DNA from: Acidobacteriota bacterium
Lineage (GTDB): Bacteria; Acidobacteriota; UBA890; WLXD01
NCBI GenBank assembly: GCA_963666215.2
Contig: CAXWPL010000002.1
Span: forward strand, 32,001 to 96,000
Length of the DNA: 64,000 bases
Direction of reading: 5' to 3'
The position numbers were made by a program, and so were the translations under genes. Of this stretch, positions 25,959 through 39,596 are shown one piece after another; within the stretch, counting starts at the first letter, position 1, and every line of letters starts with the position of its first letter. The notes beneath the pieces were generated by a model that was given only the letters and a program-made list of their open reading frames with translations, searched no databases and was not told the origin of the DNA.

Positions 25959-26331
25959 GGATACTCTCTGTCGCCGGTTGGCCGCACGCAGCTGCTCCTG
26001 CCCGATCGGCGCAGGACGGCCTCGAGAAGGCAGGCCGAGCGGGAATCCGACTGTGTCCGTATATCGACGGCTGACGGAACGGTCGACCGCCACGGGTCAG
26101 TCGCTGCCTCGATCGACGCTCGTCACGCCATCACGCCGTTAACCGGGAACGCGAGGCCAGCTGTGGCCAGTGTCCTTTGACGCTGGCTGCCATCGACTCC
26201 TATCCTGCGCAAATGCTAATTCTGCCAGCCGCTCACAGGGTCGATAGACGGTCAGCGTGCGGCTGCTCGGCCTGATCATGACGATTAGTGCGCGCTCGAT
26301 GCGACTGCTCCTATTCAATGGTGGACGTCGA

Positions 26332-27150
26332 ATGCCCCATCGCCACCCTCTCGCCGCGCGCCAAACGGGCCTTGCCGCGTTGCTGGTCGCCCTGCTGACG
26401 TTGCCACCGTTGAGCAGCGCCTCCGCGCTGGCCGCCACCGCCGTCTCGGGCTCGGTGGCGATGCGCGGCTTCTTCGCGATGCGCTCGGCTTCGGCGCTCG
26501 ACGCCGAAGCACGTCTTCTCGACGTTCTCGACCGCGGTCGCATTGCCGATTGGGCGCGCCGGCTTGCTCAGCAGCCGCGCATTGCGGGAACCGATCGCAT
26601 GAAGGAAACAGCCGATTGGGTTGCCGAACGCTTCGGCCAATGGGGCCTCGAGGTCGAGATCGACACGCACGACGTGTATCTGCCGCACGCCCTATCGGTG
26701 GCGGTGGAGCGCCTCAACCCGGACCCGAGTCCGTTGTCGTTACGCGAGGACGCAGTCAGCGAGGATCCGGACTCAGCCGCCCCGCTCTACCCAGCCGCAA
26801 ACGGTTACTCTGCGGCCGGCGATGTTCGCGGCTCGGTGATCTACGCCAACTACGGCCGCGCCGAGGATTTCGACGCCCTGAGCGCCTCTGGCGTTTCGGT
26901 CGACGGCAAGGTGGTGCTGATGCGCTACGGACGGGTGTTTCGTGGCGTCAAGGCACGCAACGCTGAGGCCGCCGGTGCTGTCGCGGTGCTGCTCTACTCG
27001 GATCCCCTCGACGACGGGTTCTTTCGTGGTGACGTCTATCCGAATGGCCCTTTCCGGCCGTGGAGCGGACTGCAGCGGGGCTCCGTCCGCTGGGGAGCGC
27101 CGGGCGACCCGGCCCCCCAGCACGGTGGGTCTGCCGCCGGTCGGCCGTGA
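26332..27150 (+). pseudogene. N-terminal/PA-domain fragment of a glutamate carboxypeptidase II-like M28 peptidase
   Basis: PRIAGT, VIYANYGRAEDF, RYGRVFRGVK, LYSDP, QRGSV..GDP then ends; catalytic M28 domain missing. Confidence 0.7.
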
Positions 27151-27304
27151 GATCAACCATCTCGCCTGGAGCTCGCGTCGCTGGCCGCGGCCATCGATTC
27201 GGCGGCTGTTGAGCTCGAGTCGGCCGTTCATCTGTTGACCGACCGGACCCTACGTCGGCGAGGCGTCGATACGCCCTAGGTGCGACCCTGGCCTTGGTGC
27301 GGGC

Positions 27305-27596
27305 AAAAAAAGAACAGGCGATCCCCGTGAACGGCCTCCCCGAATGCAGCCGGTCCCGGGAACTGCCTCTGCTCCGAACGAGGTCTGCCCCTAACGGCCA
27401 CGTTCTACGCCTGCTTCGCGCGAGGCCTCGGGAATCCCGACCGACAAGCCTCCCACCGATGCGCGGTCGGGGCTGTGCCGGCGCATCGGAGTTGTCGACG
27501 TCCCGAAGGACGAGCTTCGTGTTCAGCAGACAGCAAAGACGTTGTTGAACCCGGGGCGCGCGGCTGACCCGTGCGGCCTGGAGGATCGCCTGAACG
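27305..27596 (-). ncRNA. Structured ~290-nt non-coding RNA (6S-like or undescribed)
   Basis: Ends pair (CAGGCGATCC 27315-27324 with 27583-27592); nested helices; C(UUCG)G hairpin at 27499-27512; own promoter and 3' U-tract. Confidence 0.75.
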
Positions 27597-27601
27597 CGCA
27601 G

Positions 27602-27630
27602 ATCATTTTTCCTGGGCGCGGGTTTGTCAA
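27602..27630 (-). promoter_or_regulatory. Sigma-70 promoter of the ncRNA
   Basis: TTGACA (27630-27625), 17-nt spacer, AATGAT (27607-27602). Confidence 0.75.
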
Positions 27631-27726
27631 CCAGCCGCCGCGAGGATCCCCCTGTGGACGTCCTCGCCGAGACGCCAAAGCACTCATGACAAAGGATTTC
27701 GGCCCGTAACGGCGAATCCGGCTTCG

Positions 27727-27755
27727 TTGTGGAAAAGTCCGACGCGCTGTACAAT
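27727..27755 (+). promoter_or_regulatory. Candidate sigma-70 promoter of carD
   Basis: TTGTGG-N17-TACAAT about 75 nt before the carD start. Confidence 0.5.
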
Positions 27756-27828
27756 CCCACCTTGTGGGCGCGGCGAGAGCTGTTTCTCGCGAGCTGCAAG
27801 TAACGAAGCTAACGAACGGGGGGTCGCA

Positions 27829-28350
27829 TTGCGTTTTGAGGTCGGCGACAAGGTCGTCTATCCGAACCACGGCGTGGGCGTCATCGAGGACATCAAGCGT
27901 CGGGCGATCGCGGACACAGATCAAAATTTCTATCATCTTCGGATCCTGGCCAACGACACCATCGTCATGGTGCCGGTTGGGAATTCGAAGGCGGTCGGGT
28001 TGCGCAAGATCTTCCGCAAAGCCGAGGTCAAGAAGCTCTACATCCACCTCCGCGATCCCGATTTCGAGACCCACAAGAACTGGAAGGGTCGCTACAAGGA
28101 AAACGCCGAAAAGATGCGCTCCGGGCACCTCGTCGAGATGGGCGACGTGCTCAAGAATCTGATGCACCTGTCGCAGCGCAAGGCGCTTTCCTACAGAGAA
28201 AAGCGGATGTACGAGAAGGCCAAGACGCTCACCCTCTCTGAGGTGGCGATCGTCGAGGGCGACTCGGAGAACGATGTCCGCAAGAAGATCGAGGAGGCGC
28301 TCGCCGACTGCATGGTGGCGCGCGAAGCTCGCAAGTCGAAAGCGTCCTGA
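27829..28350 (+). CDS. carD: CarD/CdnL-family RNA polymerase-binding regulator
   Basis: FEVGDKVVYPNHGVGVI, VPV.....VGLRK, NWKGRYK (conserved Trp), LSYREKRMYEKA. Confidence 0.92.
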   Translation: MRFEVGDKVVYPNHGVGVIEDIKRRAIADTDQNFYHLRILANDTIVMVPVGNSKAVGLRKIFRKAEVKKLYIHLRDPDFETHKNWKGRYKENAEKMRSGHLVEMGDVLKNLMHLSQRKALSYREKRMYEKAKTLTLSEVAIVEGDSENDVRKKIEEALADCMVAREARKSKAS

Positions 28351-28422
28351 TTCGGTGCGATAGCCGGCCGACTCGGCTTCACGCGCACGCTTCCGCCACG
28401 CCCCGCTAAGGATCTCCGCCTC

Positions 28423-29700
28423 ATGGACGCGCTCAAGCGACTCTCCCTGCCCACGTGGATCGCCATCGGCATGCTGATGGGCATCCTGGTGGGAGTCTTG
28501 TTCGGCGAGTCGGCGACGATGATCAAGCCGCTGGGCGACCTTTTTCTGCGGCTGATCCGCATGGTTGTGGTGCCGCTGGTCTTCTCCTCGCTGCTCGTCG
28601 GCACGGCGATGCTCGGAGACCCCAAGCGTCTCGGGCGCATTGGTGGGAAGACGCTCGCGTACTACATGTGCACCACGGCAATCGCGATCGTCATCGGCCT
28701 GGTGATCGCCAACGTGGTGGAGCCGGGATCGTGGATCGACACCGAAACGCAGCAGCAGCTTCTCGCCAACTTCGCCGGCGACGCCGACGGTGCCGCGGGT
28801 CGTCTACGCGAGCGTCCGAGCGTCACCGATACCTTGTTGAACATCGTGCCCACCAATCCGGTGGCGGCCATGGCCGAGGGCTCGATGTTGCAGATTATCT
28901 TCTTCGCGCTGCTCTTCGGCGTGGCCCTGACGCTGATTCCGAAAAAGACTCATCGCGAGCAGGTCTTGGTGTTTTTCGACGGCATCAACGAGGCGATGAT
29001 CCAGATCGTCCACATGGTGATGAAGCTGGCGCCGATTGGAGTGCTGGCGCTGATGGCGGCGGCGATTGGGCAGTTCGGACTGGACATCCTGGGCGTGCTT
29101 GTTGCTTATGCCGCATGCGTGGTGGTTGGCCTGTTGCTCCACATGACGATCGTTTACGGAGGTGTCGTCAAGCTGTTCGCCGGCATGTCGCCGATGCGCT
29201 TCTTTCGTGGCATCCGGCCGGCGCAGCTGATCGCTTTCTCGACCTCGTCGAGCAGCGCCACTCTGCCGGTCACCATGCACCACGCAACGCACGATCTGGG
29301 AGTTTCGGAGCAGATCTCGGCCTTTGTACTGCCGCTCGGTGCCACCGTGAACATGGACGGCACGGCTCTCTACCAGGGAGTCGCCGCCGTCTTCATCTCA
29401 CAGGTCTACGGGATCGACCTTGGCCTGAGCGGTCAGGTGACGATCGTACTGATGGCGACACTGGCCTCGGTCGGAGCCGCTGGAGTGCCGGGCATCGGCG
29501 TGATCACACTGGCGATGGTGCTCGAGCAGCTCGGCCTGCCGCTCGAGGGAATCGCGCTCATCCTTGGTGTCGATCGCGTTCTCGACATGCTGCGCACGGC
29601 GACCAACGTCACCGGCGACGCCTCGGCCGCGGTGATCGTTGCGGCGAGCGAGGACCAGCTCTGGAAGGCGCCGCCGAAGGACGCGACCGCGAGCGCCTAG
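28423..29700 (+). CDS. Dicarboxylate/amino acid:cation symporter (GltP/GltT-like)
   Basis: FLRLIRMVVVPLVF, AFSTSSSSATLP, GATVNMDGTA, GAAGVPG, DRVLDMLRT. Confidence 0.92.
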   Translation: MDALKRLSLPTWIAIGMLMGILVGVLFGESATMIKPLGDLFLRLIRMVVVPLVFSSLLVGTAMLGDPKRLGRIGGKTLAYYMCTTAIAIVIGLVIANVVEPGSWIDTETQQQLLANFAGDADGAAGRLRERPSVTDTLLNIVPTNPVAAMAEGSMLQIIFFALLFGVALTLIPKKTHREQVLVFFDGINEAMIQIVHMVMKLAPIGVLALMAAAIGQFGLDILGVLVAYAACVVVGLLLHMTIVYGGVVKLFAGMSPMRFFRGIRPAQLIAFSTSSSSATLPVTMHHATHDLGVSEQISAFVLPLGATVNMDGTALYQGVAAVFISQVYGIDLGLSGQVTIVLMATLASVGAAGVPGIGVITLAMVLEQLGLPLEGIALILGVDRVLDMLRTATNVTGDASAAVIVAASEDQLWKAPPKDATASA

Positions 29701-30662: not shown

Positions 30663-30735
30663 GGCGGTGTAGCTCAGCTGGCAGAGCAGGCGGCTCATAT
30701 CCGCCGAGTCGGGGGTTCAAGTCCCTCCACCGCCA
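30663..30735 (+). tRNA. tRNA with CAT anticodon, most likely elongator tRNA-Met; CCA not encoded
   Basis: Acceptor GGCGGTG/CACCGCC, anticodon arm GGCGG-CTCATAT-CCGCC, T-loop GTTCAAG. Confidence 0.92.
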
Positions 30736-39354: not shown

Positions 39355-39430
<76 letters not shown>

Positions 39431-39518: not shown

Positions 39519-39596
39519 GGGGCCGTGGTGTAGCCTGGTTAACACGCCGGCCTGTCAAGCCGGAGATCGCGGGTTCAAATCCCGTCGGCCCCGCCA
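39519..39596 (+). tRNA. tRNA-Asp(GTC)
   Basis: GGGGCCG acceptor, CCGGC-CTGTCAA-GCCGG anticodon arm, GTTCAAAT, terminal GCCA. Confidence 0.97.

Follow-up and report, generated by a model that had tools for sequence, protein, structure and literature searches.

The stretch of DNA analysed here, the window, comprises 64,000 nucleotides from an Acidobacteriota bacterium (assembly GCA_963666215.2, contig CAXWPL010000002.1, positions 32,001 to 96,000 of the forward strand; positions below are counted from its first letter). On its minus strand, at 27305-27596, lies a stand-alone gene for a folded RNA of about 292 nt, and comparison with relatives confirms that this RNA is real and not a product of chance. 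An earlier note, made from the letters of the window alone, had proposed an unannotated structured RNA gene of ~290 nt on this strand, and the comparative data agree with it. Rfam 15 has no family at the locus even at E <= 10, bar chance-level matches to CC3664 (15.9 bits; cut-off 60) and mir-8521, in keeping with the note's suggestion that the RNA might be new, and among titles and abstracts on 6S RNA in Acidobacteria or Acidobacteriota we found none describing such an RNA. For these two reasons we treat the RNA of about 292 nt beside carD as a new RNA family; its likeness to the polymerase-binding RNAs Ms1 and CoRP is judged from descriptions of those RNAs, not from their sequences.

Comparative evidence for a folded RNA

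All genomes compared are uncultured metagenome assemblies and closely related, and the counts given here are not independent. A BLASTN search of 40 relatives with the RNA gave matches in 8 of the 10 other genomes of the family and in none of the 30 outside it. Because BLASTN matched inside the family only, a covariance model was needed for wider reach. This model, R1, was built from 10 sequences and matched over its full length (289-302 nt) in 10 of the 11 genomes of the family; the genome it missed is only 71% complete. In 10/10 loci the RNA is flanked by a peptidase gene and a divergent carD. Run on 151 Acidobacteriota genomes, R1 was confined to one uncultured class (class and order being the same 26 genomes in our collection), save one marginal 46-nt partial match among the 139 outside genomes. 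Pattern scans of public genomes and metagenomes contributed three further sequences, bringing the long RNAs to 12 distinct ones. Discarded as chance were the pattern matches L012 and L016 (2/9 in genome contigs), which lie inside coding sequence, and L092 and L094 (2/7 in metagenome contigs), which do not fit the covariance model.

An alignment of nine sequences shows no change in the promoter, at either end of the RNA or in several internal blocks, in contrast to the variable rod that lies between them. The earlier note had suggested a search for homologues and covariation as a check, and besides the relatives just described it yielded compensatory changes, on both sides of the pair, in 23 of 66 pairs. 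The test used a 66-pair RNAalifold structure on the covariance-model alignment, with partners slid by 1-3 columns and 500 column shuffles as controls. Sliding reduced the compensatory pairs to 3-8 and the fraction of paired cells from 93.6% to 35-45%, and none of the 500 shuffles reached the observed values for pairing or covariation. A 91-pair structure taken from one genus is only 65-72% paired in the variable rod helices of other lineages when the alignment is sequence-based. As such an alignment misaligns the most variable rod helices, an alignment-free test of duplex energy, in which partner strands are swapped, was used. Lower-rod strands from the same lineage pair at -42.9 +/- 4.9 kcal/mol (n = 54) against -31.3 +/- 4.4 for strands from different lineages (n = 90); a partner from the same lineage is thus the better fit by about 11 kcal/mol. 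The upper rod behaves likewise (-14.1 kcal/mol within and -9.6 between lineages).

It is this comparison with relatives that sets the feature beyond chance. Folding of the single sequence gave -139 kcal/mol and z = -2.17 for the minus strand and z = -3.10 for the plus strand, scores that are weak and do not discriminate the strand. The minus strand is identified as the RNA strand by the alignment, where 87 G-U cells far exceed 13 A-C cells, in line with the note's argument that G-U pairs favour this strand. A coding region is excluded because homologues differ by indels of 1, 2 and 4 nt and because the overlapping open reading frames (ORFs) have no Pfam match.

Contigs from RNA libraries

Metatranscriptome data were available as Logan contigs from four studies (sponge, seawater and one other organism; runs X1, X2, X3 and X7). 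Seventeen RNA libraries contained 7-24% of the sampled words of 26900-28400. One contig on the RNA was found in each of the four runs: 27339-27584 in X1 (word depth 6.2), 27350-27515 in X2 (182), 27328-27586 in X3 (64.8) and 27366-27588 in X7 (86.9). Together these contigs, which are confined to the RNA, span 27328-27588. A second contig of low depth lies on carD in X1 (2.8) and X2 (3.4). The flanks at 26900-27327 and 27589-27778 have no contig cover in the four RNA runs, a gap that by itself proves nothing. Contigs give neither strand, exact ends nor true abundance, and RNA libraries can contain DNA; for this reason we say only that the RNA-confined contigs are consistent with a discrete, abundant transcript, which is short of proof. 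At 27366, where the window reads C, runs X2 and X3, which come from different studies, both carry T. This natural variant changes G to A in the RNA; a U-G pair of the rod becomes U-A, and the pairing is preserved.

Promoter, ends and gene context

The promoter noted earlier, TTGACA-N17-AATGAT, is present at 27602-27630 on the minus strand, with the -35 box at 27630-27625, a 17-nt spacer and the -10 box at 27607-27602. It is a near-consensus site of the sigma-70 type (10/12 matches) and the sole promoter-like site in the 1.8 kb of 26700-28500, where shuffled sequences gave 0.3 +/- 0.6. GGTTGAC and the T-A-AT of the -10 box are invariant in 9/9 aligned homologues. From the promoter the start of the RNA is placed at ~27596-27594, and from the U-run its end at 27305, where a scan of the region for sites also found a terminator-like site.

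The gene sits in a 680-nt intergenic gap between an ORF with a PA domain and carD. The latter (27829-28350, plus strand) encodes CarD_TRCF_RID and CarD_C domains; its start, inferred as the TTG at 27829, gives a protein that begins MRFEVGDKVVYP. The RNA had earlier been placed 'upstream of carD', and it does adjoin this gene; the two are divergent, however, with starts about 232 nt apart, so that the RNA is not upstream on the same strand. Neither is it a leader, since no same-strand gene follows it. A sodium:dicarboxylate symporter gene (28423-29700, plus strand) comes after carD, and this pair is kept in 10/10 loci; it differs from the carD-ispD arrangement of Actinobacteria. On the other side stands the convergent ORF (26257-27150, plus strand), with its PA domain near the C-terminus. 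Relatives have a full PA-M28-TFR_dimer peptidase at this position; in nine of them the gene measures at least ~500 aa and encodes M28 peptidase and mostly TFR_dimer domains. The ORF may represent a truncated gene in this genome or a difference in assembly. Elsewhere in the window, tRNA genes at 30663-30735, 39355-39427 and 39519-39593 (plus strand) are the sole Rfam matches at gathering level.

Anatomy of the RNA

The fold consists of a 12-bp stem that pairs the ends, a long bulged rod, a hairpin on the 3' side, a four-way apical head and a terminal U-run, which bears out the bulged rod with a branched head that the earlier note had drawn. Its closing stem and tail are present as well: in P1 the 5' strand CAGGCGAUCCUC (27581-27592) makes 12 pairs with the 3' strand GGGGAUCGCCUG (27315-27326), directly followed by UUCUUUUUUU (27305-27314). 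All cells of P1 are paired (100%) and two of its pairs are compensatory (A-U/G-C; C-G/U-G/U-A). Stem and tail look like an intrinsic terminator. P1 is followed by a run of at least five U in 5/10 homologues; in the remaining five this run is degenerate, which suggests that termination or 3' processing may differ between genera.

Between P1 and P2 (GGCC/GGCC) is an internal loop. Within the invariant GGGGAGGCC (27333-27341), GGCC forms the 3' strand of P2 (partner 27578-27575) and GGGGA that of a conserved internal loop; the GGGAGGC module has its first copy here. Above it the lower rod is built of five short helices, with CGGGU, CAGCCG, CCCGGG, AAC and GUCUUUGCU on the 5' strand (27532-27571), interrupted by the A/C-rich one-sided bulge UUCAACAAC (27549-27541), and with 27341-27373 as the 3' strand. 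In the helix 64-72/236-245 compensatory change affects 7/9 pairs. A three-way junction on the rod carries the 3'-side hairpin GAACG-UGGCCGUUAGGGGCAGACCU-CGUUC (27376-27405), the outer stem of which is 90% paired and the loop of which is nearly invariant and contains AGGGGCAGACC. From there a short upper rod leads to the apical junction of hairpin A, stem D and hairpin C.

Hairpin A, CGUCC-UUCG-GGACG (27499-27512), is 100% paired in helix 5, with 2/3 pairs compensatory. Stem D (27442-27497) joins CGACAA (27497-27492) to UUGUCG (27447-27442); its seven pairs are kept in 100% of cells, four of them by compensatory change, and other genera have CGGUAA/UUACUG, CGGUGA/UUGCCG or CGGCGA/UCGCCG instead. 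Inside stem D are hairpin B (27489-27456; 93% paired) and the second copy of the module, an unpaired and invariant GGGAGGC at 27454-27448. Hairpin C, CGGG-AUU-CCCG (27429-27439), is paired in 80% of cells, with 3/5 pairs compensatory. GGAGGC is invariant; each of the 12 distinct long RNAs has two copies of it, both as 3' strands of internal loops that adjoin helices.

The helices listed in the earlier note were for the most part drawn correctly: GGCC/GGCC, CAGCCG/CGGCUG, CCCGGG/CCCGGG, GUCUUUGCU/AGCAGAGGC, CGUCC-UUCG-GGACG and UCGGG/CCCGA all occur in the minimum-energy fold. The pairing CCGAUGCGC/GCGCAUCGG is absent from that fold, where the stretch is paired otherwise, and reappears as hairpin B of the comparative structure, which relatives keep. 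GUCUGC/GCAGAC has to be given up; GUCUGC pairs with AGCAGGC (27415-27409), and GCAGAC lies inside the 3'-side hairpin (27405-27376), in its loop.

Canonical 6S RNA in the class and in the phylum

RF00013, the 6S family, matches nothing in the window at the gathering threshold, nothing in 27150-27800 at E <= 10 and nothing in the genome as a whole. In the 26 genomes of the class it scored 0/26, against 11/15 in the other acidobacterial families sampled. Where canonical acidobacterial 6S loci exist, their neighbours are pheT (7/8), the RNase Y gene rny (7/8) and zapA or zapB (3/8). In the window's genome pheT, zapA and rny still lie together; its zapA-rny gap of 265 nt (L058:1654-1918, minus strand; G000:C2) has no Rfam match at E <= 10 and a fold z of -0.02, and five further rny loci of the class have no 6S match at E <= 1. 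As 26 genomes have no RF00013 match and the usual zapA-rny site is without 6S, the canonical RNA appears to have been lost, or to have become unrecognisable, in this class.

Shorter relatives that share the closing module

R1 also picked up a class of ~183-nt RNAs, with matches over the whole model save a large internal deletion (E ~1e-6 to 1e-13), in 10/15 sister-family genomes; the window's genome has one such RNA as well. This paralogue lies at G000:C3:156580-156762 on the minus strand (= L051:1497-1683) and has a TTGACC-N17-TTTATT promoter and a U-run. A second model, R2, made from the 183-nt class, found it in 15/15 sister-family genomes, often in 2-3 copies, and within the window's family in this genome only (0/10 others). 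The 183-nt RNAs are covarying rods themselves (34 pairs, 12 compensatory). One subtype adjoins an SNF symporter gene; the other is upstream of an HtrA-like protease in 4/4 loci and downstream of citrate synthase (gltA) in 3/4.

A still shorter class of ~118 nt with the same closing module was picked up by R2 in the sister family (E ~1e-4 to 1e-10). In 6/6 loci (L088:1501-1618 on the minus strand, and L072, L073, L082, L083 and L087) it stands directly upstream of hom, the homoserine dehydrogenase gene, which runs on the same strand and has its start codon ~5 nt past the U-run. The element is highly conserved, has two GGAGG-type loops and is possibly a new attenuator or riboswitch-like leader. 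Rfam scans of four 183-nt loci and three 118-nt loci gave chance-level matches only.

Both shorter classes have in common with the long RNA the stem P1 (YCRGGYGA/UCRCCYGR), P2 (GGCC/GGCC), the 3' motif GGGAGGCC-G(A/x)UCGYGG and the U-run. Unlike it, they are without the apical four-way head and the 3'-side hairpin, and they occur in other gene contexts. Copies related to GGGAGGC are UGGGAGGCC and CUGGAGGAG in the 183-nt class and CGGGAGGCG and UCGGAGGCC in the 118-nt class. The long RNA appears to be an enlarged paralogue of the 183-nt rod RNA carried by the rest of the class, and 25/26 class genomes hold one or the other.

A tentative model and its rivals

What might such an RNA do? We tentatively favour, with somewhat less than even confidence, the view that the long RNA is a lineage-specific RNA of the 6S/Ms1 kind that binds RNA polymerase. 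In this model, the product of the independent gene would be a structured RNA of about 292 nt, abundant and stable, that acts in trans and is the lineage's functional counterpart of 6S or Ms1. The RNA would serve as a protein-binding decoy on RNA polymerase, either holoenzyme or core, and thereby tune the amount of free polymerase. Its rod would mimic duplex DNA, and specific contacts would be made through the conserved unpaired elements, namely the two GGGAGGC internal loops, the A/C-rich 5' bulge and the AGGGGCAGACC hairpin loop. Several lines make the model plausible: the end-paired rod, which we take to be nuclease-resistant, together with the near-consensus promoter and the RNA-only contigs; the presence of the RNA where 6S is missing and its kinship to a rod RNA of 6S size; the gene of the polymerase-binding factor CarD, which adjoins the RNA in every locus; and the precedent of Ms1 and CoRP, both from lineages without 6S. 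The case for a 6S-like role, in so far as it is built on the lack of a detected 6S in the class, the RNA-only contigs and the related 183-nt rod RNA, is circumstantial.

A number of observations weigh against this model. Neither the long RNA nor the 183-nt class is matched by the 6S model at E <= 10, and we found no sequence likeness between the new RNAs and canonical acidobacterial 6S RNAs. A large, two-sided central bubble such as that of 6S is not evident; the largest conserved unpaired stretch of the rod is the A/C-rich bulge, one-sided and of 5-9 nt. The gene lies beside carD and not in the pheT-zapA/zapB-6S-rny locus of the phylum. Moreover, the closing module is found directly upstream of hom as well, in the 118-nt element, which points to a more general role, for example as a terminator or as the binding site of another factor. 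Finally, the coincidence of 6S absence and RNA presence is only a correlation across related genomes. Bolder, and held with correspondingly more reserve, is the conjecture that the whole class has dropped canonical 6S and uses a modular superfamily (~118, 183 and 295 nt) with a common closing stem and a repeated GGGAGGC, of which the 295-nt form might be a fourth type of polymerase-binding RNA after 6S, Ms1 and CoRP, or else the RNA half of a new ribonucleoprotein.

The main rival, to which we give somewhat less credence than to the favoured model, is a scaffold or sponge for a different partner, which would recognise the repeated GGGAGG(C) internal loop. The RNA could in this way titrate an RNA-binding protein, or else the 30S subunit through the anti-Shine-Dalgarno end of its 16S rRNA, and not polymerase. 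All members of the superfamily have two purine-rich, Shine-Dalgarno-like elements: GGAGGC comes twice in 12/12 long RNAs, with related copies in the 183- and 118-nt classes, and no unpaired residues are more conserved than the GGGAGGC loops. Besides, RNAs of three sizes in three gene contexts have the module in common, and its place at the head of the leader-like element of hom fits a sponge and a polymerase ligand equally well. However, each GGGAGGC is partly paired or adjacent to a helix and may thus be a structural motif and not a free mimic of the Shine-Dalgarno sequence. Searches of the window's genome, G000 (92% complete), turned up neither CsrA (PF02599) nor Ro/TROVE (PF05731), the obvious known partners of RNAs with several motifs or with paired ends. 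The same result weakens the ideas of a CsrA sponge of the Csr/Rsm type and of a bacterial Y RNA, the latter also being without an Rfam match. A large structured RNA with a catalytic or other cellular role outside transcription, comparable to OLE, ROOL or raiA, would suit the size, the complex junctions, the invariant loop nucleotides and the absence from Rfam; as no ribozyme-like core was recognised and a distribution limited to one class argues against a fundamental housekeeping role, we consider it improbable.

A gene that stands alone, has a promoter and a terminator of its own and keeps AGGGGCAGACC and GGGAGGC conserved and unpaired might encode an ordinary small RNA that pairs with mRNAs through a conserved single-stranded stretch. 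At ~290 nt, branched and with 66-91 conserved pairs, the RNA has far more structure than seed-pairing small RNAs keep, which renders this very improbable. The divergent layout seen in 10/10 loci, with the two starts about 232 nt apart, could mean that the RNA arises only as a by-product in cis of the region that controls carD, divergent transcription itself counting for more than the transcript. Selection on RNA secondary structure runs along the whole length, however, and the related 183-nt RNAs occur in other contexts, with no carD among the neighbours scanned, and we give this idea scant credit. Least credible of all is that there is no RNA gene here, only a fold that arose by chance in a GC-rich spacer, or else protein-coding sequence. 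The modest fold z-score, the lower one of the opposite strand and the long ORFs that overlap the region would allow it; the covariation, the conserved promoter, the RNA-only contigs, the indels of 1, 2 and 4 nt and the want of Pfam matches leave it reasonably refuted.

What are the implications of the RNA family? It is rare for a large bacterial RNA with strong covariation to lack a database family, and such RNAs have each tended to uncover new biology. Here the phyletic pattern is clear, with canonical 6S in other acidobacterial families and not in this class, and there are relatives that vary in size. If the favoured model of polymerase binding is true, unrelated larger RNAs would have taken the place of 6S in at least three lineages independently, and decoy control of polymerase would be close to indispensable. 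If another partner is the true one, the repeated GGGAGGC loop would constitute a new RNA-protein recognition module. Either way, the gene provides a concrete, synthesisable candidate of 292 nt from a group without cultured members.

Comparison with known RNA systems

As those families are defined, the long RNA is certainly not a member of 6S or Ms1, since model score, size or phylum, and gene context all fail. Of the earlier description, 'enlarged 6S-like or lineage-specific', the lineage-specific part stands; a 6S-like nature and polymerase binding are at most plausible. The Rfam scan for 6S, Ms1 and signal recognition particle (SRP) RNA suggested there was run and gave no match at the locus; the SRP RNA of this genome is encoded elsewhere (G000:C4:809330-809429, 69.1 bits).

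6S RNA is a rod in which a closing stem and a terminal stem enclose a large central bubble that imitates an open promoter; it binds the sigma-70 holoenzyme and templates short product RNAs, whereas Ms1 binds the polymerase core. With 6S RNA (SsrS; RF00013) the long RNA shares a stand-alone gene, paired ends and a long bulged rod, and its 183-nt relatives are of typical 6S size. Bacillus has a pair of 6S paralogues, 6S-1 and 6S-2, which the several paralogues per genome described here recall. Unlike 6S, with its 180-200 nt, the RNA measures about 292 nt (289-302 among homologues); it does not reach the 6S gathering threshold of 46.4 bits, and its branched head and 3'-side hairpin set it apart as well.

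Ms1 of Actinobacteria is ~300 nt long, has a 6S-like shape with extra hairpins and belongs to a lineage without 6S; it is flanked by oxidoreductase and HAD-IB hydrolase genes, is restricted to Actinobacteria and is in Rfam (PMC9130861). The long RNA resembles it in size and in its lineage without a detected 6S. It differs in belonging to Acidobacteriota, in its flanks of a peptidase gene and carD, and in having no Rfam Ms1 match. CoRP of Corynebacterium is a polymerase-binding RNA of 516 nt that is cleaved into two fragments and flanked by tRNA genes, from a genus in which neither 6S nor Ms1 can be found computationally (PMC11077062). Ms1 and CoRP were both discovered by experiment alone (PMC9130861, PMC11077062). 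Likened by description and not by sequence, CoRP and the acidobacterial RNA are each a large, lineage-specific RNA in a group without a detected 6S.

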